Origin: an uncultured Candidatus Saccharibacteria bacterium
GTDB taxonomy: Bacteria; Patescibacteriota; Saccharimonadia; Saccharimonadales; CAZLTB01
Direction of reading: 5' to 3'
Length of the DNA: 64,000 nucleotides
NCBI GenBank assembly: GCA_964562505.1
Contig: CAZLTB010000002.1
Span: 1,200 to 65,199, forward strand
Both the position numbers and the translations under genes were made by a program. Positions within the stretch are counted from its first letter, which is position 1; each line of letters begins with the position of its first letter. The notes below the pieces were generated by a model that was given only the letters and a program-made list of their open reading frames with translations, searched no databases and was not told the DNA's origin. This document shows positions 5,365 through 63,884 of the stretch, in pieces.

Positions 5365-5369
5365 GACTA

Positions 5370-6050
5370 TTATTGTGCCTTCGTATTAGAGTTAGGTTGA
5401 AACAAATCGGTAGGCTTTTCAGTCTCAGATCGCGTCGTAACTTGCTGGGGAACGATTAGTTTAACTTCGGTTTTACTATTGAATATAGCTGGATCAAATT
5501 TAAGGTTTATGGTATAGCTTGCTCCTTTGTCATCACGTCCAAAATTGGTCAAAACCACATCTGAAAATGCTTTAGCCGTAACAGGAGGGTCTCCAGCTGT
5601 ATAGGTAGTGAACTTCATTGTATCTATAAAGGTGTTGACAGTCTTTATGCTGTCGGCAGCGCCAGTAATGGTCATGCTGGAATCAGTAAAGCTTACATCT
5701 ATCTTAGCAATGCTAATTTGTGAAGGAGTTATTTGGCCTAGATAGTTAAATAGCCGAGTTGCCACAGGCTTTTTATCATGTAAGGCCGGTAAATTAACTA
5801 ATTGATTCTGAACTGTTAAAACTTTGTCCAAATCCTTTGTGTCTTTCAGTTTCTTGGTCATGGTAGAGACGTCTTTGTTAAGATCGCTCAAGTGCTTTTT
5901 CTGGACACCATCTACAACTACGAACAGTAGAACAAGTACGGTGATGGCCACTGCGCTGACAATAAATGAAATCAGCATAATCAGCTGTTTAGTGCGCTTC
6001 GCTCGTATGTATTCAAGCTTTACATCAGGTAAAAGGTTAAACTGTATCAT
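5370..6050 (-). CDS. pilN: PilN-like fimbrial assembly protein
   Basis: 226 aa. N-terminus MIQFNLLPDVK (the PilN INLLP motif), then one TM helix and a periplasm-type domain. Directly downstream of pilM. Confidence 0.8.
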   Translation of the reverse strand: MIQFNLLPDVKLEYIRAKRTKQLIMLISFIVSAVAITVLVLLFVVVDGVQKKHLSDLNKDVSTMTKKLKDTKDLDKVLTVQNQLVNLPALHDKKPVATRLFNYLGQITPSQISIAKIDVSFTDSSMTITGAADSIKTVNTFIDTMKFTTYTAGDPPVTAKAFSDVVLTNFGRDDKGASYTINLKFDPAIFNSKTEVKLIVPQQVTTRSETEKPTDLFQPNSNTKAQ

Positions 6051-6053
6051 TTT

Positions 6054-25952: not shown

Positions 25953-27869
25953 CTAGCGAGGGATATTAGGGATAGTTCCGTTTGTAGAATTATTTGGAGG
26001 TGGAGGAGGCATCATTGGAGGTGGCACTGGAGGCGGGGGTGGCAAATTATTTATTGGTGGCGCAGGTGGAATGCTAAACGTAGATGCAGGCTGCAAAGGA
26101 TTAGAGTAATTGGTCATGGGTGTTGGTGAAACGTTATTATTGACATTACTAGGTGGAAAAGTTGACGCTCTAAAATTAGGGGTTAGTCCTGTCATCGGTG
26201 GCACGCTCGGGGGTAGATCCACATTACTAGCAAATAGTGGTTCTTGAGGTGTGGACTGAGCAGCCACGGGAGGAATAGATATTGGGCTTGGTCCAGGTTG
26301 GTTCATTGGTTGAATATTTCCGGTGCTTGGATCAATTTGTAGGTCTCCTGGGGGCACTTGAGCAACAGGAGAAGCTGTATCATCAATGACATCATGTCCC
26401 AGATCAAGATTAACTGGTTGGGCGTTAAGTGCCTGAATAGGCTCAAGCGGGGTTTCGGGTGGAGTTTGAGCAACAACTGATTGCACGGCATTACGTGCTT
26501 GTTCGATATCAGGAGGAACAGCGCCTAATTGACTTTCTGTTCCGGGTTGAGATGTCAGCTGATCAGAATGTGGGCTATCTACTGATTCTTCAATTTCAGA
26601 TAGGGTTGGGTCGGTACTGGACGAACTAGGTTCATTAGCCTGCGTCTGTGAGGGCTGAACATCACTAGTAATATCGTCTTCTATCTTTGCCGGTCCTGAA
26701 TCATGGCTAAGAATAGGGGTTGATGATTTGGTTGAGCTCAAGGGATCCGTAGCAGGATCTAAGTCTTCTGGTTGTGTATTTGCTGTCATACGACTATCTA
26801 GCGATGGAAGATCTTCATCTTGTTGATCAACCGGTTCAGTCGGTGAACTCTCATAGTCAGGCATACCAAGATTCTTGTCTGAATCTACGTGTGAGTCGAC
26901 AAGTAAATGCCTATTTTCTGGCTCTACCTGCGGAGTATTATCAGTTTGAGGAGTTTTATCAGGAAGATGAAGATTACCATGTTCATCAATATCAATCTGC
27001 TCTACATCTGGTTCAGGTAACTCTTCGTGGTCAATATGCAGAGCTCCGTCGGCACTATTATCTCCATCATCAGAGTCTGGTGAGTTATCTTTTTTTGGAG
27101 ATTTTTTATCATGTTCCTCTGGTTTTTCGGGTTCCTGGAGCTTAGTTGCAACGAGCTGCTGATTAGCTCCCGCGGACATAAGCTTGGCACTGGCAGCCAT
27201 AGTAGTTGAGGTAGTCTTGGCATTACTGAAACGATCAGTCTCAGCCACAATTCCCGTTAGGAGCGAAGTGGATATTTGACTATCCAATAAGCCGGTTTTT
27301 AGCATGTCGGCTAGAGCCACGACCATTTCACACAAACTACTTGCCTGTTCGTCTGCCCAGTTTATGGATCCTAAGTTACTTGCGTTAGAAGTATTGATCG
27401 AGACTACGGTGGCATCATGCAAAATGCGTCCATGTGCAGTAATAGCCTGGTCGAGATCATCTCGAATTCGAACGCCCAGGCCAATTATAATGTCAACATT
27501 AAAGTCGCCTTGGCTAAATTCCAGATCTTTCTGGCCTATTGAAGTACGATATGGAGTAATAAAGATCTTTACGACTTTGTCTTCGACTTTATAGCGCAGC
27601 TTATCAGCTTTAGATTTGTCCAGAGCAATAATAAAATCTCGTAAACTGTCGGTATTTTTTTCTATGGTCTCGCCGGGTTGCAAGAACTCAATAGTGCTTG
27701 GAACTTTCCCACTAAAAACAGCTGTAGCATGCTTTCCAAGCCGATTAAGAATCAGTGTCAACCCTATGGCTGCGGCTAACTGATCAACGGATGGATCGGT
27801 GCTTACAGTCACGAGTACATTACTGGACTCCTTGAGCTGCTCAGCAATCTTGTTTTTAGGATTTTCCAT
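25953..27869 (-). CDS. DHH-family-like protein with degenerate catalytic motifs and a long Pro/Ser/Gln-rich C-terminal tail
   Basis: The N-terminal ~250 aa is colinear with the NrnA-type DHH domain, with motif IV kept as GIVAETDRF. The DHH triad reads INTS. The remaining ~400 aa are low-complexity and end in poly-Pro. An alternative GTG start is at 27920. Confidence 0.75.
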   Translation of the reverse strand: MENPKNKIAEQLKESSNVLVTVSTDPSVDQLAAAIGLTLILNRLGKHATAVFSGKVPSTIEFLQPGETIEKNTDSLRDFIIALDKSKADKLRYKVEDKVVKIFITPYRTSIGQKDLEFSQGDFNVDIIIGLGVRIRDDLDQAITAHGRILHDATVVSINTSNASNLGSINWADEQASSLCEMVVALADMLKTGLLDSQISTSLLTGIVAETDRFSNAKTTSTTMAASAKLMSAGANQQLVATKLQEPEKPEEHDKKSPKKDNSPDSDDGDNSADGALHIDHEELPEPDVEQIDIDEHGNLHLPDKTPQTDNTPQVEPENRHLLVDSHVDSDKNLGMPDYESSPTEPVDQQDEDLPSLDSRMTANTQPEDLDPATDPLSSTKSSTPILSHDSGPAKIEDDITSDVQPSQTQANEPSSSSTDPTLSEIEESVDSPHSDQLTSQPGTESQLGAVPPDIEQARNAVQSVVAQTPPETPLEPIQALNAQPVNLDLGHDVIDDTASPVAQVPPGDLQIDPSTGNIQPMNQPGPSPISIPPVAAQSTPQEPLFASNVDLPPSVPPMTGLTPNFRASTFPPSNVNNNVSPTPMTNYSNPLQPASTFSIPPAPPINNLPPPPPVPPPMMPPPPPNNSTNGTIPNIPR

Positions 27870-28021
27870 TTTTAGTTTTAGTTTTAGAAATACTTTCTGG
27901 GGTGAGCATAGCACAAGCACTTACACTTGTCCACCACATATATACACTTTCTTTACAAAATGCCTGTCTCTAGAGTATAGTCTAGGGTCGATATACAGCT
28001 AATCAGATGCAAAGAGGTTAA

Positions 28022-35171: not shown

Positions 35172-37982
35172 ATGCTAGATAACATGACTGGAGAAGACAA
35201 AAGCCTTCCTTTTTATCGTCTTGGAACTGAACGAGTAATAGAACAGTTACAGACCAATAAAGATGGTCTGGTGGCAAATGAAGCCAGTAAACGTGTTGAA
35301 CATTACGGTTTTAATAAGCTTGAGCAACTGCATAAAGAATCTTTGCTGCACAAATATCTGCGTCAATACAAAGATCTTATGATAATTTTACTGCTGGCCA
35401 GTAGCTTGATTTCATTTGTATTTTTGGGCGACAAAACAACTGGTATTGCACTGTTGGCTATAGTTCTATTTAACACAATTATAGGTTTCTCCCAGGAATA
35501 TAAAGCCGAACGTCTGATGGAAAGCCTTGAGTTACTGGTTGTACAAGAGGCAAAAGTAATTCGGGACAGCAAATTAGAGCAGCTTCCTTCAATTGAATTA
35601 GTTCCTGGCGACATAGTCTATATAGAAGAGGGTGATTCTATCCCGGCAGACTTACGTCTTATAGATGAGTCAGAATTATCAACAAATGATTTTGCTTTAA
35701 CGGGAGAAAGTGATCCTTCGCGCAAATTTACCCATGCTATCAGCGATAACGTGGAGCTAGCCAATCGACATAATCTAGTTTTCATGGGTACAACTGTTGC
35801 AACCGGTCATGCCCACGGAGTTGTAGTTGCCACAGGTATGCAAACTGAGCTTGGTCGAATTGCTGGACTAAGCGCAGATACAACCACTGATATTAGTCCT
35901 TTGCAGAGAGAGATGAACCACATTGCCGCACGTGTAACTCAGGGAACGATAATTTTGTGTGTAATTCTTTTGCCTACTGCTATGCATTTTGGTCTGCCGT
36001 TTAAAAATGCTCTACTATTTGCCATAGGCATAGCGAGTTCGATCATTCCGCAAGGTCTGCCAGCAGAAATTAATACTGCCCTTGCCCAAGCCGCCAATAA
36101 ATTAGCCAAGGCCAGAGCACTTGTTAAAAAGCTATCTTCAGTTGAAACTTTGGGGGCCACAACTATTATTTGCACTGATAAAACCGGTACCCTAACTAAA
36201 AATGAAATGACAGTAGAGCAAATATTAATTGGTCGAAACATTTATAACGTAAGCGGTACAGGTTATGAGGCCAATGGAAAGATACAACAATCCGCTAAAT
36301 CAGTTAATGGTGAAGAGCTTAAGGAGTTAGATTTATTCCTTGCTACTGGAATTTTTGCTAGCAATGCTGAGATCAATCCACCGGATGGGGAGCACGTAAC
36401 ATGGTACTGTTTAGGTGATCCCACTGAAGGAGCCTTAATAACATTGGCGCGCAAAGGCAATATTGAGCCTAATGAGCTCAATTCGTCTAGCCCAGAGTTA
36501 CGTGAGTTTGCATTTGATTCGGCTCGCAAACGTATGAGTTCAATCCGGCGCTATGGACCAAATAACCAGCTTTATGTATTTGTTAAAGGTGCTCCGGAAA
36601 GTATATTAGAACGCTCGAACGATGTGTGGGACCATGGACATGTTCGACAATTGAAGAAAGCTGACCGAGATTTTTTCCTGAGTCAAAATACTAAGTGGGC
36701 TGAAACTGCTATGCGCAACTTAGCTTACGCGTACAAAGTTCTCCCCGCTAATACTGACATCAAAAAACTTACAATGGATGAGGTTGAATCAAATCTTACC
36801 TTCTTGGGTATGGTAAGCATGATTGACCCTTTGCGTGATGAAGTGGCTTCTGCTATGAGGTCGGCACATAATGCACACATTAAAATCTCAATTATAACTG
36901 GGGATTTTGCACCGACAGCTAAAGCCATTGCCGTAAAAGCTGGTTTAGCTATTAAATCTGATGAAATAGTTGTTGTAAGTGGAGAAGAACTTAGACACAT
37001 TGATAACCCACGCATATTGCAGCTAGTGATGCGTGGCGGTGTAGTTTTTAGTCGTGTAAGTCCAGAAGATAAACTACGTATAGTAGAGCTCGTCAAAGAC
37101 AGTGGGCATGTTGTAGCTGTAACGGGAGATGGTATAAATGATGCTCCGGCACTTAAGCGCGCCGATATAGGCGTAGCCATGGGGCGGACCGGCACAGATG
37201 TAGCAAAACAATCGGCTGAGATAGTATTGCTTGATGATAGTTTCAGCACTTTAGTACGAGCTATTCAGCAAGGTCGAGTCATTTTTCAGAATATTAAGAA
37301 AGGCACCCTTAGTTGCTTCACCAGTAACGCGGCTGAGCTAATCGTAAATCTTACGAGTCTAGCAGCTTTTGTGATTTTCAAAGTACCATTAGCTTTGACT
37401 GTTATGGAAATTCTGGCTATTGACCTAATCGCTGAGCTTTTCCCAATAGCGGCACTTGGTTGGGATCAAGCTGACCATGAACTTATGAATGAACGACCGA
37501 GAAATCCTCACAACCACATACTTAACTCTCGCTCAATTACAGATTTGCTTTGGTGTGGTGTATTAATAGGTGGGCTTGCGTTCATGAATTTTGTTCTTTT
37601 CTTCTGGCGCAATGGTTTGAGTGCCAGAGGTGCATCAATGAACACTTCTTTTTATATGCAGGCCACAGCTCTAACTTACTTAACCATTGTGCTCTGCCAA
37701 ATGCTCAATATTTTACAGCGCCGTAGCCAAAATGGTTTGTTCACCCGTTACCAATTTCATAACAAGCAACTATGGATCGCCATGCTGTTTTCACTATTTT
37801 GTGTTGGCAACATTATTTATAATCCGGCTGTGGCACCCTATTTCGGTGCCGGTCCACTTAAAATATCAGACTGGATATTTGCCCTTGGAGCCGCCGCGAT
37901 ATTTGTAGCCGTACGCGAAATACAGCGTTATTTCTATAAGCTAAGAGCTTCTACCCAAGAGATACAAAGCCAATCCATTTAG
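35172..37982 (+). CDS. Cation-transporting P-type ATPase (type II, Ca2+/Mg2+-like)
   Basis: 936 aa with the phosphorylation site ICTDKTGTLT, TGES, VTGDGINDAPALKRADIGVAM and about ten TM helices. Confidence 0.92.
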   Translation: MLDNMTGEDKSLPFYRLGTERVIEQLQTNKDGLVANEASKRVEHYGFNKLEQLHKESLLHKYLRQYKDLMIILLLASSLISFVFLGDKTTGIALLAIVLFNTIIGFSQEYKAERLMESLELLVVQEAKVIRDSKLEQLPSIELVPGDIVYIEEGDSIPADLRLIDESELSTNDFALTGESDPSRKFTHAISDNVELANRHNLVFMGTTVATGHAHGVVVATGMQTELGRIAGLSADTTTDISPLQREMNHIAARVTQGTIILCVILLPTAMHFGLPFKNALLFAIGIASSIIPQGLPAEINTALAQAANKLAKARALVKKLSSVETLGATTIICTDKTGTLTKNEMTVEQILIGRNIYNVSGTGYEANGKIQQSAKSVNGEELKELDLFLATGIFASNAEINPPDGEHVTWYCLGDPTEGALITLARKGNIEPNELNSSSPELREFAFDSARKRMSSIRRYGPNNQLYVFVKGAPESILERSNDVWDHGHVRQLKKADRDFFLSQNTKWAETAMRNLAYAYKVLPANTDIKKLTMDEVESNLTFLGMVSMIDPLRDEVASAMRSAHNAHIKISIITGDFAPTAKAIAVKAGLAIKSDEIVVVSGEELRHIDNPRILQLVMRGGVVFSRVSPEDKLRIVELVKDSGHVVAVTGDGINDAPALKRADIGVAMGRTGTDVAKQSAEIVLLDDSFSTLVRAIQQGRVIFQNIKKGTLSCFTSNAAELIVNLTSLAAFVIFKVPLALTVMEILAIDLIAELFPIAALGWDQADHELMNERPRNPHNHILNSRSITDLLWCGVLIGGLAFMNFVLFFWRNGLSARGASMNTSFYMQATALTYLTIVLCQMLNILQRRSQNGLFTRYQFHNKQLWIAMLFSLFCVGNIIYNPAVAPYFGAGPLKISDWIFALGAAAIFVAVREIQRYFYKLRASTQEIQSQSI

Positions 37983-39050
37983 AAACTCTACACCCTCTTT
38001 GGTCCATAAATCATGGGATTGGGTAAGCGATTTACTGGCTAGTTGTATATGTTTCTCAGCCTTTGTCTTTGCATAATCAAGTGCGCCGCTTTTTATTAAA
38101 ATATCTTTGCATCGCTCGAATTCCATTTGAGTAAGTTGCTTATTGCCTAACATCTGGACCAGGAAATTTTTGTCTGCATTGTTGGCACGCTTCAAAGCAT
38201 AAACTGTCAGTAAAGTGCGTTTACCTTCCCTGATATCGTCAAGAGGGCTTTTGCCGCTTTCGAACTCACTGCCAAAAACCCCTAAAATATCATCCGTGAT
38301 TTGGAAGGCTCGTCCCGCATTCATAGCATAATCAGTTATTGCATCAGTTCGATCACAATCAGCCCCAGCCAGAACCATGCCAACGTGAAGTGGATTGAGA
38401 AATGTGTAGGTAGCGGTCTTCCATTCCATAACTTTGTCTACATCCGCCTCGTTCACATTTGCTGACATTTCGTTTGCCACGTCTGTAGTTTGACCATGTG
38501 CCGTAACCAACATAGTGCGATTTAGAATACTGATAACTTTAAGACTTAAATCTTCATCAACCGCCAAATTTGCTAGTACCATGTGGGCAGCATGCATACC
38601 AGATAGACCGGCTGTAAGTGCAATGGCTAAACCGAAGTGCTCTGGGTCGTCAGCCAACTGTTTCTTCCGATGGTAATCAGCGAGCATAGCATGTGCTGAA
38701 GGTCCGCCACGGCGGGTAAGGCTTCTGTCTTGAATATCATCAACTATTAATATATAGGCGTGAACCATTTCAATAGCCCGGGCAGCCTGAATTATCATGT
38801 GTTGATCCGTGCCGCCACACATTTCATAGCCAATCATTGTTAGAGCTCCACGAATACGTTTGCCGCCGCGAGTTAGAATACTTAGATAAGCATCAGTAGC
38901 GAGTCTTGCTTGATTGCCATAAACTTGCAGCGTAGTGCGTTCAATTGCTCGAGAATATTTTTCAATATCATCATCAATAAGTTTTTTATAGGTCTTGATC
39001 TTCTTTTTGAACAATTCAACATTATTCTGGCTAACTTGTGCTTTATTCAT
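37941..39050 (-). CDS. Polyprenyl diphosphate synthase (trans-isoprenyl, GGPP/longer-chain type)
   Basis: 369 aa with the first Asp-rich motif ILIVDDIQDRSLTRRG and the second FQITDDILG. Confidence 0.88.
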   Translation of the reverse strand: MNKAQVSQNNVELFKKKIKTYKKLIDDDIEKYSRAIERTTLQVYGNQARLATDAYLSILTRGGKRIRGALTMIGYEMCGGTDQHMIIQAARAIEMVHAYILIVDDIQDRSLTRRGGPSAHAMLADYHRKKQLADDPEHFGLAIALTAGLSGMHAAHMVLANLAVDEDLSLKVISILNRTMLVTAHGQTTDVANEMSANVNEADVDKVMEWKTATYTFLNPLHVGMVLAGADCDRTDAITDYAMNAGRAFQITDDILGVFGSEFESGKSPLDDIREGKRTLLTVYALKRANNADKNFLVQMLGNKQLTQMEFERCKDILIKSGALDYAKTKAEKHIQLASKSLTQSHDLWTKEGVEFLNGLALYLLGRSS

Positions 39051-42660: not shown

Positions 42661-43707
42661 ATGCTTATGGTTATGGATTCGAAGTCAACGCAGGCTAATA
42701 AGTATATTCCTCCTAGCGTGCAACAGGCTATGAACCAACATATGCAGCACATGCCTGCTAACTTACAAAAGTATCAAAGCGGCAACACTTATATTCCGGC
42801 TGGAGCCCAAAAAGCAATGACTGACTATATGAAAAAGAGCATGCCTGCTCACATGCAAGAATACATTGGTTCTTACATGAAAAATCAGGTCACGTCAGGG
42901 TTAAATTCTATTAATCCAGGCACTCCGCGAGCAGTTCAGTCTGGGCCTCGCGGTGTTGATTTGATGCGCCGCGATCACTCGGCTTTCAATGAACAATTTA
43001 ATGTCACTGTCGATTCCTCGCCAACTGCTGGCTCCCCAAAAAGCCTTTCATTTTCACCTCAATATTCTTCATCAGAAGGCACTCCATCGACATCAACGTC
43101 TGAAAACCAGTCTCAGCCACAGAATAACCCTTATGACTTTTTAGATGATAAACCACCGATTAAAAAAGGTCTTTTTTCTTCTGGAGGTGGTGGTAAACAA
43201 AAGAGTCTAATTGTAATCGTTGGAACTCTTTTATTAATCACAGTCATAGCTGTCATGCTTTTTTCCGTTTTTGGCGGAACGCCCAGTAACAAAACTGAGC
43301 TATTAGGTCTAGCGCAGGAGCAAAATGAACTTATTCGTATTTCAGACATAGGAACAATGAAGGCCCGTGGCGCAGATGCTAAAAATTTGGCAGTAATATC
43401 AAAACTTACATTCACCAGTGATCAACAGCCGCTTTTGGCTGCACTCAAGACCCAAAAGGTAAAAGTTACCACTAAACAACTTGATGCCGGCAAAGATAGT
43501 AAAACTGATGATCTACTCACTCAGGCAGAGCAAGCTAATCGATTTGACGAAGTATTTATACAAACCTTGCAAAGTAAACTCACCGCTTACCAAAGAGATC
43601 TGAAAAAGGCCCATGATAGTCAAGCAACGGGCAAGAAATTGAAGCTTACCCTATCTGACCAATACAGAAATGCTTCTCTAATAATTAACGTCAAACCTGA
43701 GCTTTAG
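42661..43707 (+). CDS. Hypothetical single-pass membrane protein with a duplicated Met/His/Gln-rich N-terminal motif
   Basis: 348 aa with one central TM helix (LIVIVGTLLLITVIAVMLFSVFGG). The repeats are YIPPSVQQAMNQHMQHMPANLQKY and YIPAGAQKAMTDYMKKSMPAHMQEY. Confidence 0.6.
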   Translation: MLMVMDSKSTQANKYIPPSVQQAMNQHMQHMPANLQKYQSGNTYIPAGAQKAMTDYMKKSMPAHMQEYIGSYMKNQVTSGLNSINPGTPRAVQSGPRGVDLMRRDHSAFNEQFNVTVDSSPTAGSPKSLSFSPQYSSSEGTPSTSTSENQSQPQNNPYDFLDDKPPIKKGLFSSGGGGKQKSLIVIVGTLLLITVIAVMLFSVFGGTPSNKTELLGLAQEQNELIRISDIGTMKARGADAKNLAVISKLTFTSDQQPLLAALKTQKVKVTTKQLDAGKDSKTDDLLTQAEQANRFDEVFIQTLQSKLTAYQRDLKKAHDSQATGKKLKLTLSDQYRNASLIINVKPEL

Positions 43708-52268: not shown

Positions 52269-52961
52269 TCAGTGCTTGTCGTTATTAAGTGCTACAATAA
52301 GCTGCCAAATAACCACGTACATACCTCCAACTAAAAGAAAGAATATAGCAGTAGTAACAAACGTCTGTAAGTGGACAATTGGGTAAATCAAACGATCAGA
52401 AACATCAAATAAAAGTCCTGCTGGATTTACTATCACATCCCAGGTATTCCATCTTAAGTTTCTACCCAAATAAATGGCAAAACTGCATAAAAGTATAACC
52501 ACAGCTATCAGAGCATGAGCCCGAAATCGCTCCAGGCGTTTGAGCAGTTCACGATGGACTATATATATGCTTACAAAACCGCTGATAAGACCGTTAAATA
52601 TAATCGAGAAGAACAATGCAGCGTCATAAAGTAGATTCACTTCTCCGGTATTTCGCAGATGGACAAGATCACTAATCAGATAGAAACTGTTCGGCAAAAA
52701 TATTAGCCAAAGCGCTGTCAGTAGAATATTTTCGGCACTGAGCCAAGGGGTTGTTGACAATCTTCGCATTACCCACCAAGCCAGACCTATGGGTATCCAT
52801 GCCAATGCCAGGTTCCAGAATAGAAACCAATATCTCAGGGTATGGCTGTCCGCTACACGAAAAGCATATAGTAATAAACTTAGACTATTAGCAACAATTA
52901 AGGCGTAAACAACCCGTTGGAAGCTATTTGCTCCGGCCCCCACAGCCTTTTCCCTGCTCAT
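52269..52961 (-). CDS. DUF1361-family integral membrane protein
   Basis: Polytopic membrane protein containing the LWLIFLPNSFYLISDLVHL motif. The ATG at 52961 is preferred over the longer track ORF. Confidence 0.6.
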   Translation of the reverse strand: MSREKAVGAGANSFQRVVYALIVANSLSLLLYAFRVADSHTLRYWFLFWNLALAWIPIGLAWWVMRRLSTTPWLSAENILLTALWLIFLPNSFYLISDLVHLRNTGEVNLLYDAALFFSIIFNGLISGFVSIYIVHRELLKRLERFRAHALIAVVILLCSFAIYLGRNLRWNTWDVIVNPAGLLFDVSDRLIYPIVHLQTFVTTAIFFLLVGGMYVVIWQLIVALNNDKH

Positions 52962-52996
52962 TATCTGTTTATTATAACAGTTGTATACTGTTAGCA

Positions 52997-54154
52997 ATGC
53001 TTAGGCGCACTGTCAAAAAAGCAATCAAACACTTAAGGGCCAACAACTATATACCTCTTAACCGTATTGAACTGGCTCGTAGTAAAACTCTGAATAACAT
53101 AGACCATATACGGTCTCAAAATAAGAAACTGGGCATAATTCCAGTACTTAAAGCCAATGCCTATGGTCATGGTCTTTCACAAATGGCTGAGATATTGAAT
53201 AAAGCAGAGTGTTCGTTTGTCGCGATTGATGGTTATTTTGAAGCAGCCAGCATTCGTGATATCACTAAACATCACATCTTAGTAATGGGTTATATTCGTC
53301 CGGAAAACGTTCGTTTGCTTGATACTAAGAGATGTTCATTTGTAATACAGGATAAAGAAGGGCTCGAAGCATTTGCACGTCTGGGAAAACCAGTAAAGGT
53401 TCATCTTGAACTTAACACTGGAATGAATCGGATGGGGCTACAGCCCGAAGAACTAGACGATTACTTAAATACGCTCAAACAATTCCCTGCACTCAAACTT
53501 GAAGGGGTTATGTCGCATCTGGCAGATGCCGATAATGAGATCGATAACAGCTATTCGCTGGAACAAACTAAACTGTTTGATGATTTGGTCAAAAAGATAT
53601 TGGGCAAGGGATTTAAACCCAGTTTTATTCATTTAGCTCAAACCGCGGGTAGTACTAAGACGAAAAGTCGCTTTGCAAACGCTATTCGTTTGGGAATTGG
53701 CTTATATGGACTTAATCCGTTGAATGCAAATGACCATGCTCACTCAAAGCTAGCAGCTTTGCAACCGATTTTGGAAATGAAAAGTACAGTTATTAAAGTT
53801 ATAGAACTTAAAAAGGGTGATCGAGTTAGCTATAACGGTATTTTTACGGCACCAAAGACCATGAAAATTGGTGTATTACCACTCGGTTATTATGAAGGTA
53901 TTCCTAGGGTCTTGAGTAACTCAGGCACGGTCTTATATAGAGATAAGCAATTGCCGATCGTAGGCCGAGTTTGCATGAATCATACAATGATTGATATAGA
54001 CGATGCGGATATAAAAGTCGGGTCTGAGGTTACAATAATTTCAAGTGATCCAGATCAGCCAAATGCTGTTAATAATATATGTGCATCTCATAACCTATTT
54101 AACTATAGCTTTGTAACCGGGCTTGCAAGTACAACCAGACGAATAATTGTTTAG
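52997..54154 (+). CDS. alr: Alanine racemase
   Basis: PLP-lysine motif PVLKANAYGHG and C-terminal motif GRVCMNHTMID. The ATG at 52997 is preferred because the upstream 23 codons overlap the divergent gene. Confidence 0.9.
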   Translation: MLRRTVKKAIKHLRANNYIPLNRIELARSKTLNNIDHIRSQNKKLGIIPVLKANAYGHGLSQMAEILNKAECSFVAIDGYFEAASIRDITKHHILVMGYIRPENVRLLDTKRCSFVIQDKEGLEAFARLGKPVKVHLELNTGMNRMGLQPEELDDYLNTLKQFPALKLEGVMSHLADADNEIDNSYSLEQTKLFDDLVKKILGKGFKPSFIHLAQTAGSTKTKSRFANAIRLGIGLYGLNPLNANDHAHSKLAALQPILEMKSTVIKVIELKKGDRVSYNGIFTAPKTMKIGVLPLGYYEGIPRVLSNSGTVLYRDKQLPIVGRVCMNHTMIDIDDADIKVGSEVTIISSDPDQPNAVNNICASHNLFNYSFVTGLASTTRRIIV

Positions 54155-54192
54155 GCATCCGCATCTAGATGGTACGTTATAATATGAGGTAA

Positions 54193-54843
54193 ATGAGACC
54201 TCTTAATTCGTTTTTGGATTGGTGCCGGAATTTGGTCAGACGTGTGATGCATAGAATTGCCCTTTTACTGAACTCAATAACCGGTGGTCATTTGTCACCA
54301 AATACTATAACCATTACTGGCCTATTAGCACATATACCGATAGCGTGGCTAATTGCTACGAGGCACAATTATTGGGCAGCTGGATTACTAGTAATATTCG
54401 GGCTTTTTGATACTTTGGACGGTGAGATGGCTCGTTTACAAGGTCGATCCAGTACCACTGGTATGTTGCTCGATTCTATAACCGACAGAGCTAAGGAAAT
54501 ATTACTTTACAGTGGTATAGCCTATGCCATTATTGCCAGTACCGGCCGGCCGTATTTAGCAGTTTGGGCAGTTGCTGCTTGTGGTTGTTCTTTATTAATA
54601 AGCTATGTAAATGCTTGGGGTGAAGTTGTCTTTGCAAAGAAGCACATTAATCATGACGTCAACAAAACCTTCAGAGGCGGCTTACTAGCTTTTGAAATCA
54701 GGATGTTTCTCGTTGTTATCGGTCTGCTAACTGATCGCCTGGCTCTTCTAGTAATAGTAATCACGATCGGGGCTATTTATACCAGCCTAATACGCTTGTC
54801 TAGAATTATCGAAAATCTAAACCAAGCTGATGTTCAAAGTTGA
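54193..54843 (+). CDS. CDP-alcohol phosphatidyltransferase (inositol-phosphate-transferase-like flavour)
   Basis: 216 aa and polytopic. The full signature D-TL-DG-EM-AR-x8-G-x3-D-x3-D is present as FDTLDGEMARLQGRSSTTGMLLDSITDR. Confidence 0.85.
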   Translation: MRPLNSFLDWCRNLVRRVMHRIALLLNSITGGHLSPNTITITGLLAHIPIAWLIATRHNYWAAGLLVIFGLFDTLDGEMARLQGRSSTTGMLLDSITDRAKEILLYSGIAYAIIASTGRPYLAVWAVAACGCSLLISYVNAWGEVVFAKKHINHDVNKTFRGGLLAFEIRMFLVVIGLLTDRLALLVIVITIGAIYTSLIRLSRIIENLNQADVQS

Positions 54844-55483
54844 TTTACACACACACTCTATCGCTTCACCAGACGGAGGTATTTCTGCAAATCAATATAA
54901 AAAGGCTATCAAATCGGGCTTGGTAGACTGCGTGGCTATTACAGACCACAATCGCATAGATTTTGCGACGCGTATTAAGCAGGAATTAGGCGAACATATT
55001 ATCATTGGCGAAGAAATTATGACTTCGGCTGGAGAAATAATCGGTTTATTCCTTGAAAGCCCGATTCAACCCGGACTTTCTCCACTTGAAACTGTCAGGC
55101 AAATTAAGGATCAACGGGGCATAGTTTATATACCGCATCCATTCGAAACTATTCGTAAAGGACTTCATCCTCAAACTTTGGAAGAACTGGCTGATTATGT
55201 TGATATTATAGAAATTTGTAATGGCCGGGCCTTTTTCCAAAACCGTAGCGAGCAAGCAGTGGTCTGGGTACGGCTTAATCATAAGCTTGGTGCGGCAAGC
55301 AGTGATGCCCATGGACTGCACGGCTTAGGTAAAACTTTTACGAGAATGGATAGTTTACCAAAACGAGATAATGTATTAGAACTTTTACAAAATGCTAAAC
55401 CTATGACAGGCCGTCCCGGTTTACTAAGCCTTCTTTATCCTAAGTATAACCGTCTGCGCAAAATAGTCTGGAACCAATCATGA
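54830..55483 (+). CDS. PHP-domain metal-dependent phosphoesterase
   Basis: 217 aa containing MFKVDLHTHSIASPDG, AITDHN, IPHPF and SDAHG. It overlaps the previous ORF by 14 nt. Confidence 0.85.
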   Translation: MFKVDLHTHSIASPDGGISANQYKKAIKSGLVDCVAITDHNRIDFATRIKQELGEHIIIGEEIMTSAGEIIGLFLESPIQPGLSPLETVRQIKDQRGIVYIPHPFETIRKGLHPQTLEELADYVDIIEICNGRAFFQNRSEQAVVWVRLNHKLGAASSDAHGLHGLGKTFTRMDSLPKRDNVLELLQNAKPMTGRPGLLSLLYPKYNRLRKIVWNQS

Positions 55484-56004
55484 ATTTATTAGCTACGGCT
55501 TTTTGGGTCTTTTTACCAGCAGGCATTGCTAATATGGTGCCGACATTTGCGGCCAAAATACCTGTCATCAAGAATTGGAACACGCCAATTGATCTTTGGG
55601 GTAAGTATAAGGGCGGGCGGATCCTAGGTGATAATAAAACTTGGCGTGGAATAGTTTTTGGAACTTTGGTAGGTGGCTTGGTTGGACTTATTCAATACAA
55701 ATTGATCTTACCAAGTCAAACTTCATCTTTTTATATTTTTGTAGCCACTGCCTCAATGGGTTTTGGTGCTTTATTCGGTGATGTAGTGGAGAGTTTTGTA
55801 AAAAGACGTCTTGGCGTTAAGCCGGGCAAAAGTTGGTTCCCTTTTGATCAACTTGATTATATTTTCGGAGGTCTGATATTTATTTATCCATTTATCCATT
55901 TATCTCTAAAGCTAATGGTCGCTATCGTCATTGTGTATTGGGGGCTTCATTTGATTGTTAATTATATGGGCTACATGTTAGGGATTAATGAGGGTCACAT
56001 ATAG
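55480..56004 (+). CDS. CDP-archaeol synthase (CarS/DUF46)-like cytidylyltransferase
   Basis: 174 aa and polytopic. LPAGIANMVP, GRILGDNKTWRG and GDVVESFVKRRLGVKPG..FPFDQLDY match the archaeal CarS pattern by eye. It has an ATGA overlap with the PHP gene. Confidence 0.7.
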   Translation: MNLLATAFWVFLPAGIANMVPTFAAKIPVIKNWNTPIDLWGKYKGGRILGDNKTWRGIVFGTLVGGLVGLIQYKLILPSQTSSFYIFVATASMGFGALFGDVVESFVKRRLGVKPGKSWFPFDQLDYIFGGLIFIYPFIHLSLKLMVAIVIVYWGLHLIVNYMGYMLGINEGHI

Positions 56005-56006
56005 TT

Positions 56007-56738
56007 CTAACTAGCTTTTATGTAATACTCGTTGGCCCAAGCCTCAGCTAAAAATTGCTTATCAAAAAGCTCAAACAGGGCCTCTGTCTGAGATTCCATA
56101 GATGAAAGAGCTTTTAGTTTAAGTTTTTGTATATCGGTTGATAATTCAAAACAAATATCGCATTCTTGTGATTCGTAAAGAATCGGCTTATCAATGTTAT
56201 AGAAAATATTTATCTTTTCATCTATAGGTTTTAAATATTTTTCGTAATTGTGTTTTGTCCCAACGACATGAAAGACAGTAATGTCTCTGGCTGATTCTTT
56301 GACCACACGCTTCACCCAATCTGATACAGCAGAGTGGTCGGGATTACCCGTCCAACCATCAGGGCCAAATGTCAATATGGTATCTGGCTGGTATTGCTCA
56401 ATGAATGCTTGCAGTTTATTGACAGCTTCATCTGTATTAACTTGATCACAGTGTGTATCAGAATATCCTAGCCAATGGTGGTTATTAATACTCAGAATTT
56501 TGCAGGCACGTTTGAGCTCATTTGCCCGAATATCACCTAAGCGAGTCGCTGGCCAACGACTTTCATCCTGAATCCCAGCCTCGCCTTTAGTAGCAGTAAT
56601 ACAAACTACTTCCTGTCCATTTTGTACAGCTGTACTAAGTATGCCTGCAGCCAGAAAACTTTCGTCGTCAGGATGCGCCCAGACAGACATAATTATGCCT
56701 AGTTGTTTTATATCATCAGGTGTTTTAATTTGCCCCAT
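56007..56738 (-). CDS. PIG-L/LmbE-family N-acetylglucosaminyl deacetylase
   Basis: 243 aa with the zinc motif VWAHPDDESF and a later HPDH-like motif GNPDHSAV. Confidence 0.85.
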   Translation of the reverse strand: MGQIKTPDDIKQLGIIMSVWAHPDDESFLAAGILSTAVQNGQEVVCITATKGEAGIQDESRWPATRLGDIRANELKRACKILSINNHHWLGYSDTHCDQVNTDEAVNKLQAFIEQYQPDTILTFGPDGWTGNPDHSAVSDWVKRVVKESARDITVFHVVGTKHNYEKYLKPIDEKINIFYNIDKPILYESQECDICFELSTDIQKLKLKALSSMESQTEALFELFDKQFLAEAWANEYYIKAS

Positions 56739-57306
56739 CTGTTCGTTCCGCTTTACGGCCTAAGAGAGCTAAGAGCTTAGTCTGAATGCTTGCGTCTGAA
56801 GATACATCAATTGCTGGTGCAAAATCTCCATTGACCGATAATTTTTCTTTGCGAGGAAGCATAAAGTCATATAAGCTTCCTGCCAGCTCCTCATTGATAA
56901 TCAAATTACATTGAGTACTTTGAGCCACATCCCAGCCATGTATGCACATATCATTACCAATTTCATTAATATACTGACGAGCTGGCACGTCACCTTGGGA
57001 TAAATGGACAATCTGGTCTAAACCACTGCTCCTAACAGCTTTGCGTGCATTACTAGCAGCAGCTTGCCAAGCTTTTTGCAAATCTTCACCAAGAACATCT
57101 CCGTCATATTTGCTGCCAACTTCATTAACCGTTTTGCCAGCCAACATATCTGGAACCCAAAGTAGTTCATAAACCATGTGGTTAACCAGTGCTTTTAAAT
57201 CCCATTCTGTGCAAGGTGTAGCATTTCCAAGTTGGTCATCATGGACATGATGAATACAGCCTGAAGCCTGGTCGAGCGCCTGTGTAAATAGATCTTTTGG
57301 GTCCAC
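56725..57306 (-). CDS. DinB/MDMPI-N-like protein (TIGR03086-like, actinobacterial type)
   Basis: 193 aa with a GTG start and a GGAGG SD. Contains PCTEWDLKALVNHMVYELLWV, resembling the mycothiol-dependent maleylpyruvate isomerase N-terminal domain family. It overlaps the LmbE gene by 14 nt. Confidence 0.6.
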   Translation of the reverse strand: MDPKDLFTQALDQASGCIHHVHDDQLGNATPCTEWDLKALVNHMVYELLWVPDMLAGKTVNEVGSKYDGDVLGEDLQKAWQAAASNARKAVRSSGLDQIVHLSQGDVPARQYINEIGNDMCIHGWDVAQSTQCNLIINEELAGSLYDFMLPRKEKLSVNGDFAPAIDVSSDASIQTKLLALLGRKAERTDGAN

Positions 57307-58469: not shown

Positions 58470-58973
58470 ATGTTCGGTCAAAACGATAACAGCCAAGATC
58501 AAAACCAAGCTTTCAACCCTGCGTTACCTAATGCTCCGATCGCTAGTGCACCTGTGCCTGATACATCATCAGTAACATCATTTGGTAGTACTCCTCCAAC
58601 TCCTCCGCCTACAACCGCATCTGTAAACCCAAATGAATTTAATGCAACTCCTAGCCTACCGGCCGAACCACCAGTAAGTCAGCCATCAGTACCTCAAGCC
58701 GGTCCAGTAGATAACAATTTAATTGGCATTAAGCAACAAGCCTTGCAGCAACTTTCGCCGTTGGTTGGACGTCTTGAACAAACACCCGAAGAGAAATTCC
58801 GGACAACAATGATGATGATTCAAGCCTCGGATGATCAAAGTCTTATAAAAACCGCGTATGAAAGTGCCGGGCAAATCGTGGACGAAAAAGCTCGGGCACA
58901 AGCATTACTAGATATAGTCAACGAAATCAACTATTTCACTCAACAGAGCCAAAACCAAAATAAAGGGAACTAA
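58470..58973 (+). CDS. Hypothetical protein with a Pro/Ser-rich N-terminal half and a helical C-terminal half
   Basis: 167-aa ORF. No TM segment and no family recognised. Confidence 0.45.
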   Translation: MFGQNDNSQDQNQAFNPALPNAPIASAPVPDTSSVTSFGSTPPTPPPTTASVNPNEFNATPSLPAEPPVSQPSVPQAGPVDNNLIGIKQQALQQLSPLVGRLEQTPEEKFRTTMMMIQASDDQSLIKTAYESAGQIVDEKARAQALLDIVNEINYFTQQSQNQNKGN

Positions 58974-59344
58974 ACCGTCGGTTGAAGATTATATAACGGT
59001 TGTCTTGCTTGCTGTGCTGCGTCAGCCTGCACGGGCATAATGATACGCTCCGGCTGCTGCTCGATAAGTCTTGCTATAGAATTCTCTAGAGAACCGCGTA
59101 ATGTTCTAAGTTCCTGATCCAGCTGTACGATTCGTGATTCAAGAGCCACCGCTCGGCGGTGCATTTGAACACGCTGGAATTCACTTTGCCTTAGAAGTTG
59201 CTGGTTTTGCTGTAGATTACTAAGCAGCGCTCTCATTAGGTCATTCTGAGCCTGTAAATCCTGTCTAGATGCAACACGTTGAAGCATTTGGTTTTTGACA
59301 TTTTCCATGACGTTCTGCACGTCTTGTTTCGTAAGGTTTGTCAT
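58970..59344 (-). CDS. Gln-rich coiled-coil protein (paralog A)
   Basis: 124 aa with a GGAGG SD 6 nt upstream. The N-terminus LTKQDVQNVMENVKNQMLQRVASRQDLQ is colinear with the neighbouring gene. Confidence 0.6.
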   Translation of the reverse strand: MTNLTKQDVQNVMENVKNQMLQRVASRQDLQAQNDLMRALLSNLQQNQQLLRQSEFQRVQMHRRAVALESRIVQLDQELRTLRGSLENSIARLIEQQPERIIMPVQADAAQQARQPLYNLQPTV

Positions 59345-59432: not shown

Positions 59433-59741
59433 TCAACCTTGGAGCAAGTTCATAGCTCTGGTTTGTTGATCAAGTATTCTAAGGAGAATCTGTTGCATAG
59501 CAGCAATCTGTCGTTCCATGTTAGTGACTTTCAGTGTCATCTGATATTGTCTTGCCTGGTATTGGCGCATTGCCTGCTGGTTTTCACCATGCATATCACG
59601 TATATCTTGCAGAATGATGTTGCGAAGTTGTGTAACAGATACCTGCACATCGTTTCGCGTTATCACATTGCTTAAAATAGACTGTCTGGCACGCTCAAAT
59701 GCAGTTTGCACGTCTTGCTGGGTTGCTGCGGCCATAACCAC
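59433..59741 (-). CDS. Gln-rich coiled-coil protein (paralog B)
   Basis: 102 aa with an AGGAGG SD. The N-terminus ATQQDVQTAFERARQSILSNVITRNDVQ is colinear with paralog A. Confidence 0.6.
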   Translation of the reverse strand: MVMAAATQQDVQTAFERARQSILSNVITRNDVQVSVTQLRNIILQDIRDMHGENQQAMRQYQARQYQMTLKVTNMERQIAAMQQILLRILDQQTRAMNLLQG

Positions 59742-60043
59742 CTCCTAAGGTTACTAAAGCGGCTATGTTTGTTTGATCGGTTGAGTTTTTGTTAAACCGA
59801 CCTCTTGGTCCTCCTCCCTCGCAAAGTTCCGCTGCACTCACCCGATTCGTTCATAACGATTGAGATTGGGTATTCGGTTATTCGGTTTCGCTATTAGCTC
59901 GCTGTACTCCAAGCGACCATATTGCAGAATACAGTTCTTCGCTCACAACCAAAACTTTGTGTACACTTTATTAAACAACGGATCAAAATAACGGTCAGTG
60001 ATTATAGTCACAAACTGTTTAAGGTATGGTTTTGTAGCTAATA

Positions 60044-62771: not shown

Positions 62772-63884
62772 TTAATTTGCGTTTTCGGTCCGTGGGCCTC
62801 GATGACGTCGAAATGACTCGTAAAGTCGTCCGCTTAATATATATTCTTTAAGCTGTTCTTCGGTATCTGATATCTGTTGAAACGCCTTGCTATTATCGTC
62901 TCTGCCCTCTATAAAGGCTTCCATATAAGGATCGAAGACATATTCTTTAAAATAGTCCCATTGGACAGGTAATTTGAAACCACTTAGTAATCCAATACCA
63001 TTGTGCTGTTCAGGCAGAGCCATAGAACCATACATAACCCTTAGATCATGCACTGCTTTATGAAGTACTATTGACGGCTTTGCTTCGTCAGTTAAAAAAG
63101 TTGCGGATTCCCAATCTATGAAAAATATGTCTCCAGTGATATCTACTGCAATGTTTTTAAACTGAGGGTCACCATGAAAAATATTCTTACGGTGAATGTT
63201 TGCCAACTTTTCAGCAATAAACTTTATGTTTTGGCGCTGCCCAGCATATTCTTCATTTTCTATGTCTGTAGCAACATTCACCCAGTTGGAGTTATCAAGT
63301 GCTTCGACACCCTTTTCTAATTCTGTGATAGAGTAGCCTGTTCCATCACTCCCGTACATAAAGCCCACTGGCTTAAAGCATCGCATGCCTTCCTTGGTAC
63401 TAACTATCTGTGCATTCAACCAGTCGTAACACGCTTTTATAGGTTTGGTAGTGCAAGGTTTTATTGCAACCGGCAGAGCGGCTTGTGTGTCTTTATCATT
63501 GTAAAGTAGTCCAAAGAACACTTGATGGGCTGAAGTTTCGGCCACACTGGTACGGACAACACTAAACTTAGTCAGACCAGCCCCCATCAGTTCAGAGTAT
63601 TCGGGTGAAAGCCATAGACGATTATTATTCCTTTCAACCCGTTCTTGAATACTTACAGCCATTTGTACATTTATCGGTTTTGATTCGTTAATAATAGCGT
63701 GCTCATGTCGGTCTATATCAATCACCTGCGCACCATTAAGTGCATAGCCTTCTTCAATTGCCTGGCGAAAAGCATAGACTTGGTTTTTGTGGCCTGGTTC
63801 TAGTTCATTTGAGCCTAGTACTTCCCACTCTTCAAGTACAGAAGTTTGGGCAGGCAAAGCTCTTTTTTCACTCTCGGCTTGCAT
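62772..63884 (-). CDS. Protein-kinase-like fold protein (Kdo/WaaP/RIO-like atypical kinase)
   Basis: 370 aa with VAIK-type Lys (LPVAIKP), catalytic loop FHGDPQFKNIAV and metal-binding FFIDWES. It has a ~130-aa N-terminal extension of unknown type. Confidence 0.65.
   Translation of the reverse strand: MQAESEKRALPAQTSVLEEWEVLGSNELEPGHKNQVYAFRQAIEEGYALNGAQVIDIDRHEHAIINESKPINVQMAVSIQERVERNNNRLWLSPEYSELMGAGLTKFSVVRTSVAETSAHQVFFGLLYNDKDTQAALPVAIKPCTTKPIKACYDWLNAQIVSTKEGMRCFKPVGFMYGSDGTGYSITELEKGVEALDNSNWVNVATDIENEEYAGQRQNIKFIAEKLANIHRKNIFHGDPQFKNIAVDITGDIFFIDWESATFLTDEAKPSIVLHKAVHDLRVMYGSMALPEQHNGIGLLSGFKLPVQWDYFKEYVFDPYMEAFIEGRDDNSKAFQQISDTEEQLKEYILSGRLYESFRRHRGPRTENAN

Follow-up and report, generated by a model that had tools for sequence, protein, structure and literature searches.

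Three overlapping genes of an uncultured Candidatus Saccharibacteria bacterium form a translationally coupled cassette at positions 54193-56004 of the 64,000-nucleotide stretch of contig CAZLTB010000002.1 that we analysed as a whole (the window). They encode a CDP-alcohol phosphatidyltransferase (CAPT), a phosphoesterase of the PHP family and a membrane protein related to the archaeal CDP-archaeol synthase CarS. By sequence, profile and fold, the last of these is a genuine CarS-family protein and not a CdsA. The operon may install a phospholipid head group, with the CarS-like enzyme acting first, a CAPT resembling phosphatidylinositol-phosphate (PIP) synthases (PIPS) second and the PHP enzyme as phosphatase last; to this model as a whole we assign a probability of about 0.5. 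The genes and their junctions are as follows:

54193-54843, plus strand: ORF1, class-I CAPT resembling archaetidylinositol-phosphate (AIP) and PIP synthases (216 amino acids (aa); PF01066)
54830-55483, plus strand: ORF2, predicted soluble metal-dependent phosphoesterase of the PHP family (217 aa; from profiles, fold and metal motifs)
55480-56004, plus strand: ORF3, predicted CarS-family integral-membrane CTP:lipid-phosphate cytidylyltransferase (174 aa; PF01864)
54830-54843, plus strand: 14-nt overlap of the ORF2 start with the ORF1 stop, read from the sequence as translational coupling
55480-55483, plus strand: 4-nt ATGA overlap of the ORF3 start with the ORF2 stop, likewise read as translational coupling

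A sequence-only reading of the same DNA had described the three plus-strand ORFs with their 14-nt and ATGA overlaps, and its coordinates proved exact.

ORF3 matched the CarS-like Pfam family PF01864 with 116.3 bits (cutoff 22, E = 2e-33) over residues 2-171 of 174. It narrowly missed the cutoff of the NCBIfam CarS equivalog model NF003114 (145.4 against 148 bits), on which its relatives from the Candidate Phyla Radiation (CPR) reached 134-138 bits; falling below the equivalog cutoff argues against assuming the same substrate as in archaeal CarS. The CdsA profile PF01148 gave only a local match (residues 49-114, 37.9 bits), and the CdsA model NF008635 scored 22 bits against a cutoff of 385. Membership of the CdsA family also fails on size, CdsA having about 270-290 aa and nine transmembrane (TM) helices. 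The PGHGG...DR.D part of the PROSITE CdsA signature is missing from ORF3. When compared with solved structures by sequence, ORF3 matched the A. pernix CarS (ApCarS, 5GUF) at E = 6e-16 and the Thermotoga CdsA (TmCdsA) at 6.5e-4. Its AlphaFold2 (AF2) model (pLDDT 92.8) had 5GUF as the sole significant fold match in the PDB (E = 6.4e-6, TM-scores 0.66/0.72), with TmCdsA at E = 0.55. In a motif-level comparison, the blocks GDxKT, GDxxxSFxKRRxG and DQxD are common to ORF3 and ApCarS and invariant in 18 relatives.

The CarS family comprises 1,767 clusters at 50% identity (E <=1e-3), at least 555 ORF3-matching stretches occur in GTDB species genomes, and ORF3 homologues already bear the name "CDP-archaeol synthase" at NCBI and JGI. 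Archaeal and CPR sequences of the family interleave at 35-41% identity. Two of the loci that we compared are archaeal by context, L089 through GatD/GatE, CDC48 and TruD, with a CarS 36% identical to ORF3, and L091 through deoxyhypusine synthase, while L090 is a CPR bacterium by context (LytR and a type IV secretion system coupling protein). In a neighbour-joining tree, which is rough (no support values, few taxon anchors) and was used only for the interleaving of archaeal and CPR sequences, the archaeal L089 protein nests amid CPR sequences, so that the CPR proteins lie inside the CarS radiation and do not form a distant side family. The motif W.PFDQ.D, considered as a CPR-specific CarS signature, was discarded because L089 carries it too.

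ORF1 matched PF01066 with 61.9 bits and carries the complete CAPT signature D1xxD2GxxAR...GxxxD3xxxD4 (DTLDGEMAR...GMLLDSITD), including the stretch LLDSITDR. Across 123 homologues the four Asp and two Gly are present in all 123, the Ala in 122 and the Arg in 115. The best NCBIfam models were AIP synthase (AIPS; NF040950, 77.5 bits, cutoff 180) and PIP synthase (NF045883, 75.8 bits, cutoff 170), followed by Bacteroides PIPS and the synthase of di-myo-inositol-phosphate phosphate (DIPPS); PgsA and PssA reached 17 and 27 bits, and all of these scores lie below their cutoffs. The only significant solved relatives were PIPS (6WM5, 5D92, 6H53), AF2299 and DIPPS. As far as sequence comparison can place it, ORF1 belongs to the inositol-phosphate-using clade of AIPS, PIPS, DIPPS and AF2299 and not with PgsA or PssA.

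In PIPS (MtPgsA1 numbering), R155 and R195 bind the acceptor phosphate, R94, which follows D4, is typical of inositol-phosphate users, and K135, R137 and R152 line the pocket (PMC4634129, PMC6506517). The equivalents of the three acceptor-phosphate arginines are R99 (R94), R170 (R155) and R201 (R195), kept in 119, 123 and 123 of the 123 Saccharibacteria homologues, respectively. As these phosphate-clamping arginines are retained, the product of ORF1 should carry a terminal phosphate that needs removing. The R152 position is F in ORF1, and most species-level relatives have K, K and F at K135, R137 and R152 (K and K at the first two in 43 of 71 species-level loci). ORF1 also has a lineage-specific insertion, H..NK.FRGG. 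The pocket subtype (K..K or N..W) was tried as a predictor of the PHP gene and dropped, showing no correlation (KK with PHP, 39; KK without PHP, 4; N-type with PHP, 23).

ORF2 scored just under the Pfam gathering thresholds (PHP, PF02811, 23.8 against 26.4; PHP_C, PF13263, 17.6 against 21.3), its homologue in L086 passes both, and a CehA/McbA domain match gave 46 bits. The AF2 model (pLDDT 87.3) was matched by Foldseek with probability 1.0 to 3E38 (BVU_3505), 7UG9 (RNase AM), 2ANU (TM0559) and 2YB1 (Cv1693), at E values of 4e-9 to 3e-5. The metal-ligand motifs H7/H9, D39-H40, E61/E62, H103 and D159/H161 are invariant in 53 homologues, and ORF2 is the most conserved of the three proteins, with 64-79% identity in its best 120 matches. 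No TM segment was found in ORF2. The model and these motifs mark it as a soluble metallo-phosphoesterase of the PHP family. Its C-terminal helix (...LLYPKY.RLRK) is conserved, basic and hydrophobic; the idea that this helix is a clean amphipathic membrane anchor was abandoned, as a hydrophobic-moment scan did not single it out. Homology to PgpA (including BT_1525), PgpB/PAP2, PgpC/HAD or PTPMT1 was not detected by Pfam or NCBIfam, so that ORF2, if it does the job of a phosphatase for PIP or phosphatidylglycerol phosphate (PGP), would be a non-orthologous replacement.

The family assignments of the sequence-only reading agree with these results: it had taken ORF1 for a CAPT of the PIPS/AIPS type with the complete signature, ORF2 for a PHP phosphoesterase and ORF3 for a CarS/DUF46 protein unlike CdsA. 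The motifs that it quoted, LLDSITDR in ORF1 and LPAGIANMVP, GRILGDNKTWRG, GDVVESFVKRRLG and FPFDQLDY in ORF3, are all present in the sequence.

Conservation of the three-gene order in relatives, which the same reading had named beforehand as a test, was followed in 81 non-redundant related loci from different species. The order CAPT, PHP, CarS occurs in 66 of the 81. Within these 66 three-gene loci, PHP and CarS overlap or lie at most 10 nt apart in 64 (with the identical 4-nt overlap in 34), and CAPT and PHP do so in 59. With the junctions this tight in most of the loci, the coupling is no chance feature of the window. Two diverged Saccharibacteria contigs carry the same trio adjoining argS and bacterial PGI. 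The order is thus syntenic over the Saccharibacteria (TM7), a parasitic phylum, and the genes are linked in other CPR phyla as well, the PHP gene staying with its partners in four CPR architectures. Besides the Saccharibacteria order these are, in Roizmanbacteria, a minus-strand CAPT gene followed by overlapping PHP and CarS genes; in Levyibacteriota, a minus-strand CAPT gene followed by PHP, DAGK and CarS; and, in L086, a minus-strand PHP gene followed by CAPT, CarS and an NTP-transferase gene.

Gene fusions link the first and third proteins independently of local synteny. Three natural CAPT-CarS fusions (P0407, P0432 and P0479; 330-353 aa) contain PF01066 followed by PF01864, and P0479 (L085, 793-1854) was called as a gene on a bacterial contig, where it follows rnpA-yidD. 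Their CAPT domains, of about 150-175 aa, are short and may have degenerated in part. P0479 has N, not R, after the fourth signature Asp, so that acceptors may differ among the fused transferases. Lipid kinases are a second recurrent partner. In L070 and L073 a DAGK_cat/YegS lipid kinase gene separates PHP from CarS; in L061 and L081, such a kinase and a PgsA-like second CAPT are encoded divergently from the cassette, and in L080 a 563-aa ORF (2961-4652, minus strand), a PgsA-like CAPT (PF01066) fused to DAGK_cat, is divergent from CAPT, PHP and CarS. A lipid kinase makes lipid phosphate, which is exactly the upstream step that an enzyme of the CarS/CdsA type needs. The Microgenomates-type CAPTs beside PHP or CarS reach 145-159 bits on the archaeal AIPS model (cutoff 180), compared with 88-112 for PIPS and 32-40 for PgsA, so the partner transferase in that lineage is likewise of archaeal type by its sequence. 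This closeness to the AIPS model suggests that CarS and AIPS travelled together. In L090, from another CPR lineage, CarS is coupled to a PgsA/Cls-like CAPT, which fits CarS as a general supplier of CDP-lipid.

Two further neighbours of CarS were recorded. An orphan protein of about 310-340 aa (L078, 5064-5996, and L064, 4192-5211, both plus strand; copies 51% identical) overlaps the CarS start in a WS6 genome and an unclassified bacterium, in the slot that elsewhere holds PHP or the lipid kinase. By eye it has kinase-like motifs (VVKEGRW, PDTRPRYP...NIIV and FIDTRWF); as a diverged DAGK or PHP it was rejected, since BLASTP, hhalign, Pfam, NCBIfam and the PDB gave no similarity. In the CPR-like loci L086 and L087 the order is CAPT, CarS, NTP_transferase, GDE_C, and an NTP-transferase gene adjoins CarS convergently in the archaeal L091. 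This protein, which has the fold of sugar- or inositol-phosphate nucleotidylyltransferases, may hint at a branch of head-group synthesis that runs through a CDP-alcohol or a sugar nucleotide.

Read as a pathway, ORF3 would convert CTP and a lipid phosphate to CDP-lipid and pyrophosphate, the substrate being most likely phosphatidic acid from host-derived diacylglycerol or lysolipid. ORF1 would pass the phosphatidyl group on to a polyol phosphate (most likely myo-inositol-1-phosphate) with release of CMP, and ORF2 would strip the terminal phosphate, leaving phosphatidylinositol (PI) as the mature lipid. The CarS-like enzyme would be the general CDP-lipid supplier of these bacteria, the role that CdsA plays elsewhere, and in some relatives it would also feed a second, PgsA-like transferase. 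We infer each of these substrates as well as the PHP step, and our confidence differs from part to part. Very probably the CDP-lipid of ORF3 is consumed by ORF1, because the CAPT-CarS fusions, the neighbouring lipid kinases and the archaeal-type AIPS partners in Microgenomates indicate a CarS-to-CAPT pathway. The lipid is probably diacyl rather than isoprenoid, and phosphatidate would come from the host, because Patescibacteria lack lipid synthesis (PMC11665869), the known hosts are Actinobacteria, the associated kinases belong to the diacylglycerol-kinase type and neither the window nor the 12-kb flanks fetched for the relatives showed any ether-lipid core genes. For inositol phosphate as the acceptor the odds are about even. 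The final dephosphorylation is assigned to the PHP enzyme more tentatively and from context, because no other hydrolase is locked to the cassette and a phosphatase is what the pathway logically calls for. Overall, the cassette probably rebuilds phospholipids from scavenged ones in cells unable to make lipids. Nothing in the checks of the ORF3 family and fold, the gene order or the ORF1 clade refuted the pathway as the sequence-only reading had laid it out, and it is supported in part: the CarS-to-CAPT logic is backed by fusions, kinases and AIPS partners, and the lipid, the acceptor and the role of PHP keep the conditional standing given here. Its description of the module as self-contained does not hold, since the cassette depends on supplied lipid phosphate and acceptor.

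Several observations weigh against this head-group model. Characterised archaeal CarS strongly favours digeranylgeranylglyceryl phosphate (DGGGP) over phosphatidate, and AfCarS fails to complement E. coli cdsA (PMC9385802), so that the enzyme could use phosphatidate here only if its specificity had changed. The scores of ORF1 fall far short of the AIPS and PIPS equivalog cutoffs (77 of 180 and 76 of 170 bits), and in the window N and W replace the K135 and R137 of PIPS. The fold of ORF2 is nearest to enzymes acting on nucleotides or RNA 5' ends (RNase AM and the pAp phosphatase Cv1693) or to TM0559 and BVU_3505, whose functions are unknown, and PHP enzymes are not known to act on lipids. Four Saccharibacteria loci have CAPT directly overlapping CarS in a cassette without PHP. 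Finally, the whole region from argS through DUF1361, the cassette and PGI to GroEL is generally syntenic in the phylum, which makes conservation of order within the phylum weak evidence when taken alone.

Some of these points feed alternatives that keep part of the model. The PHP enzyme might act on a soluble substrate, whether the pyrophosphate whose removal pulls the CarS reaction, pAp or CMP, or RNA 5' ends as in RNase AM, its place in the operon reflecting co-expression. Its closest folds (RNase AM, the Cv1693 pAp phosphatase and TrpH-like proteins), the missing TM segment, a conservation exceeding that of its partners, as often seen with housekeeping enzymes, and the cassettes without PHP all agree with this. 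We nevertheless regard it as unlikely: the link to CarS and CAPT is kept in four arrangements and at least three CPR lineages, in most cases with the stop codon of one gene overlapping the next start, and the CAPT keeps the phosphate-clamping arginines, so that a phosphatase is logically required while no other conserved hydrolase is found in the cluster. The order of reactions might also hold with a different acceptor. If this were glycerol-3-phosphate, ORF1 would make PGP and the PHP enzyme would be a PGP phosphatase, leading to phosphatidylglycerol. Glycerol-3-phosphate is universally available, and no source of inositol phosphate came to light; JGI calls many ORF1 homologues PGP synthase; the sub-cutoff scores and altered pocket of ORF1 would be explained; and unrelated families are known to replace PGP phosphatases. 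This acceptor is somewhat less likely still, as the AIPS/PIPS models give 76-83 bits and PgsA only 17, ORF1 matches no PgsA structure, the R after D4 that is typical of inositol-phosphate users is conserved (PMC6506517), and the separate PgsA-like CAPT beside the cassette in L061, L080 and L081 would be redundant.

Two further alternatives change the source or the nature of the lipid. If PHP were a phosphodiesterase resembling phospholipase C, it would release diacylglycerol from host phospholipids, a lipid kinase would turn this into phosphatidate, and CarS and CAPT would add the cell's own head group. The Levyibacteriota order PHP, DAGK, CarS mirrors such a sequence of reactions, and the superfamily includes phosphodiesterases (RNase AM and the PolX/PolC PHP exonucleases). 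Yet no PHP enzyme is known to cleave glycerophospholipids, an adjoining lipid kinase is missing from most Saccharibacteria cassettes, and the terminal phosphate of the CAPT product would still be left without a phosphatase, which makes the proposal improbable. Very improbable, in our estimate, is that the CarS-like enzyme has retained its archaeal specificity, its substrate being an isoprenoid lipid phosphate (resembling archaetidic acid, or prenylglyceryl phosphate) on the way to archaeal-style inositol lipids. It would agree with the DGGGP preference of all characterised CarS enzymes (PMC9385802), with the partner CAPTs of related CPR that are nearly AIPS equivalogs (145-159 bits), with the interleaving of CPR and archaeal CarS at 35-41% identity and with the short-chain trans-prenyl synthase, of the type making farnesyl diphosphate (FPP) or geranylgeranyl diphosphate (GGPP), encoded in the window. 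Against it, glycerol-1-phosphate (G1P) dehydrogenase and the synthases of geranylgeranylglyceryl phosphate (GGGP) and DGGGP were not seen in the window or the fetched flanks, the associated kinases are of the DAGK_cat/YegS type, the known hosts of Saccharibacteria are Actinobacteria with diacyl lipids (PMC6031116, PMC10939385), and the prenyl synthase, whose surroundings (primase/sigma-70) are unrelated, is required for undecaprenyl phosphate in any case. On this long shot, with the AIPS-like partner equally archaeal in its specificity, CPR bacteria would use a module derived from archaea to build inositol lipids on isoprenoid or mixed backbones, scavenged or derived from the GGPP-type synthase, the PHP enzyme would be the long-sought archaetidylinositol-phosphate phosphatase, and a natural hybrid membrane would extend across a major bacterial radiation. 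The reading that we prefer remains head-group installation on scavenged diacyl lipid by CarS, a PIPS-like CAPT and PHP.

The cassette lies in a setting typical of the organism. Homologues of all three proteins carry the source labels Candidatus Saccharibacteria or Saccharimonadales, and the other genes of the window are Saccharibacteria housekeeping genes (type IV pilus, FtsK, RNase J, PNPase, Pol I, primase/sigma-70, GroEL and ArgRS). GC content is uniform along the cassette at about 0.41, and the idea of a recent horizontal island was therefore rejected. Two loci labelled Candidatus Limnocylindrales/Limnocylindria (Chloroflexota; L050 and L082) show the full Saccharibacteria synteny argS-DUF1361-cassette-PGI and are probably mis-binned Saccharibacteria contigs. 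The plus-strand island consists of alr and ORF1-3 only, the rest of the window being mostly minus-strand. Upstream of ORF1 we note:

52928-54154, plus strand: alr (alanine racemase), upstream of ORF1 on the same strand
54178-54192, plus strand, before ORF1: possible -10 box TATAAT (54178-54183) with Shine-Dalgarno GAGG (54186-54189), a weak reading of the sequence

A promoter scan found no full -35/-10 site before ORF1 and no notable internal promoter or terminator; the cassette may be transcribed by read-through from alr. The position of alr between DUF1361 and the cassette is peculiar to the window and L021, most relatives having DUF1361 directly divergent from the CAPT gene, and alr and the cassette may be co-transcribed in the window genome.

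Among 59 ORFs of the 64 kb (all non-shadow ORFs of at least 110 aa), no cdsA, plsC, G1P dehydrogenase or GGGP/DGGGP synthase gene was found, and myo-inositol-phosphate synthase (MIPS) was not seen within the window either. The polyprenyl synthase that the sequence-only reading had placed at 37941-39050 is there (minus strand), a trans-prenyl diphosphate synthase of the short-chain type with 184 bits to PF00348. Of the NCBIfam models, it scores highest on the family-2 encapsulin cargo polyprenyl transferase (191 bits) and on GGPP synthase (162 bits), without reaching either cutoff. A tie to the cassette was rejected for want of neighbourhood support, as it lies 16 kb away amid primase, sigma-70 and a P-type ATPase; it may make an undecaprenyl primer or something else.

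Convergent with ORF3, with 2 nt between the stops, genes for a PIG-L-family deacetylase and a TIGR03086/MDMPI-type DinB-like protein occupy 56007-57306 (minus strand). The best models for the deacetylase are BshB2, Mca and MshB. PIG-L is found in 40 of the 81 related loci (29 directly adjoining) and MDMPI in 10. PIG-L enzymes deacetylate GlcNAc-inositol or GlcNAc-PI, and a connection with inositol lipids, or with the mycothiol chemistry of the host, is conceivable but unproven; the presence of PIG-L is uncorrelated with the CAPT pocket subtype, being split evenly. Farther along, a c-di-GMP-II riboswitch (59871-59955, minus strand; RF01786, 59.9 bits, exceeding the gathering score) precedes, on the same strand, two paralogous coiled-coil-like ORFs without family match (59433-59741, 102 aa; 58970-59344, 124 aa), with which it possibly forms a c-di-GMP-controlled unit in a reduced epibiont genome. 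Four large ORFs have no Pfam match: 7160-9946 (minus strand, 928 aa), 25953-27920 (minus strand, 655 aa), 42661-43707 (plus strand, 348 aa) and 62772-63884 (minus strand, 370 aa). The 928-aa ORF comes directly after pilM/N/O-like type IV pilus genes (4693-7094), and its product may be associated with the pilus or lie at the cell surface.

CarS and CdsA are said to "uphold the lipid divide" (PMC9385802). In a whole bacterial radiation, the resident CDP-lipid synthase seems to be of the CarS family, probably acting on diacyl lipids and beside a relative of the archaeal-type AIPS, and the cassette offers a concrete case for substrate specificity crossing that divide and for gene exchange between archaea and CPR. 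Patescibacteria are without lipid synthesis, and how they acquire membrane lipids and process them has been recognised as a gap in knowledge (PMC11665869). Starr et al. (2018) predicted, on annotation alone, that a Saccharibacterium takes scavenged phosphatidate to CDP-diacylglycerol (CDP-DAG), on to PGP, cardiolipin or PI, and finally to phosphatidylinositol mannosides, without mention of CarS or PHP (PMC6031116). Together with the lipid kinases and the PgsA-like transferases, the cassette would provide a testable core of lipid salvage and remodelling in Patescibacteria, and cultivable Saccharibacteria with Tn-seq tools are a possible test system. In the library of papers that we searched, there was no meaningful co-mention of CarS and CPR bacteria and no PHP enzyme tied to PGP, PIP or a lipid.

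The sequence-only reading had called the phosphatase step of PI synthesis poorly assigned. This is correct outside Bacteroidetes: the PIP/AIP phosphatase of Actinobacteria and Archaea has been described as unidentified (PMC4634129, PMC9385802), and the search returned nothing newer on it. Within Bacteroidetes it is not, BT_1525 of the PgpA family being the only identified bacterial PIP phosphatase (PMC9246714). PGP phosphatases belong to several unrelated families, namely PgpA, PgpB, PgpC (PMC11629553) and PTPMT1 (PMC3576122), which makes displacement by a PHP enzyme plausible. For the phosphatase that completes PI synthesis, a PHP enzyme genetically locked to the synthase is a specific and cheaply testable candidate.

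Compared with known systems, ORF3 shares with archaeal CarS (A. fulgidus AF1740; A. pernix 5GUF) the Pfam family, the size (174 against about 180 aa) and the multi-helix membrane fold. In structural alignment it is 31% identical to 5GUF and has the GDxKT, GDxxxSFxKRRxG and DQxD blocks, and the chemistry, CTP plus lipid phosphate, is presumably the same. It differs in that its host is bacterial, with no visible ether-lipid core pathway, in its coupling to CAPT and PHP, whereas the archaeal CarS genes of L089 and L091 stand alone, and in its likely substrate, diacyl phosphatidate, which archaeal CarS rejects. The logic of the cassette is identical to that of phosphatidylglycerol synthesis by CdsA, PgsA and PgpA/B/C in E. 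coli, where a cytidylyltransferase is followed by transfer of the CDP-alcohol type to a phosphorylated alcohol and by a phosphatase. In the cassette, however, the first step falls to CarS and not CdsA, the second to an AIPS/PIPS-type enzyme and not PgsA, and the candidate for the third is PHP and not PgpA, PAP2 or HAD, and the three genes overlap in one operon.

Archaeal AIPS and actinobacterial PIPS (MtPgsA1; RsPIPS, 5D92; MkPIPS, 6WM5) are the best profile and structure matches of ORF1, with which they share the full CAPT signature, the equivalents of R94, R155 and R195 and an implied route via a phosphorylated intermediate. ORF1 departs from them in its scores below the equivalog cutoffs, in R152 being F and, in the window, K135 and R137 being N and W, and in the H..NK.FRGG insertion; unlike in the cassette, the phosphatase of these systems is not encoded beside the synthase. 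The B. thetaiotaomicron cluster BT_1522-BT_1526 (Heaver et al. 2022, PMC9246714) does combine a PIP synthase with a dedicated PIP phosphatase in a bacterium. There, the phosphatase is of the PgpA family, MIPS is part of the cluster and CDP-DAG comes from an ordinary CdsA, whereas the cassette has a PHP candidate, no MIPS nearby and the CarS-type activating enzyme inside the cluster.

Hyperthermophiles make di-myo-inositol phosphate with an inositol-phosphate cytidylyltransferase (IPCT) fused or coupled to an inositol-phosphate CAPT (IPCT/DIPPS, 4MND; ORF1 match, E = 9e-5), followed by a separate dephosphorylation, in parallel to the CAPT-CarS fusions. Their cytidylyltransferase is a soluble domain of the nucleotidyltransferase fold that acts on inositol phosphate and the product is a soluble osmolyte, while that of the cassette is an integral-membrane enzyme of the lipid type. 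PHP proteins of the TrpH/YciV type (RNase AM, 7UG9/9ETK; Cv1693, 2YB1; TM0559, 2ANU) have the folds closest to ORF2 and the same HxH, DH, E, H and DxH motifs. Their known substrates are nucleotides and RNA, whereas ORF2 is shorter (217 aa), ends in the basic/hydrophobic helix and belongs to a membrane-lipid operon. Seen against these systems, the cassette follows the classical scheme of CdsA, then PgsA or PIPS, then a PGP or PIP phosphatase, but assembles it from non-orthologous components of archaeal type and of the PHP family, and it is conserved over a bacterial radiation.

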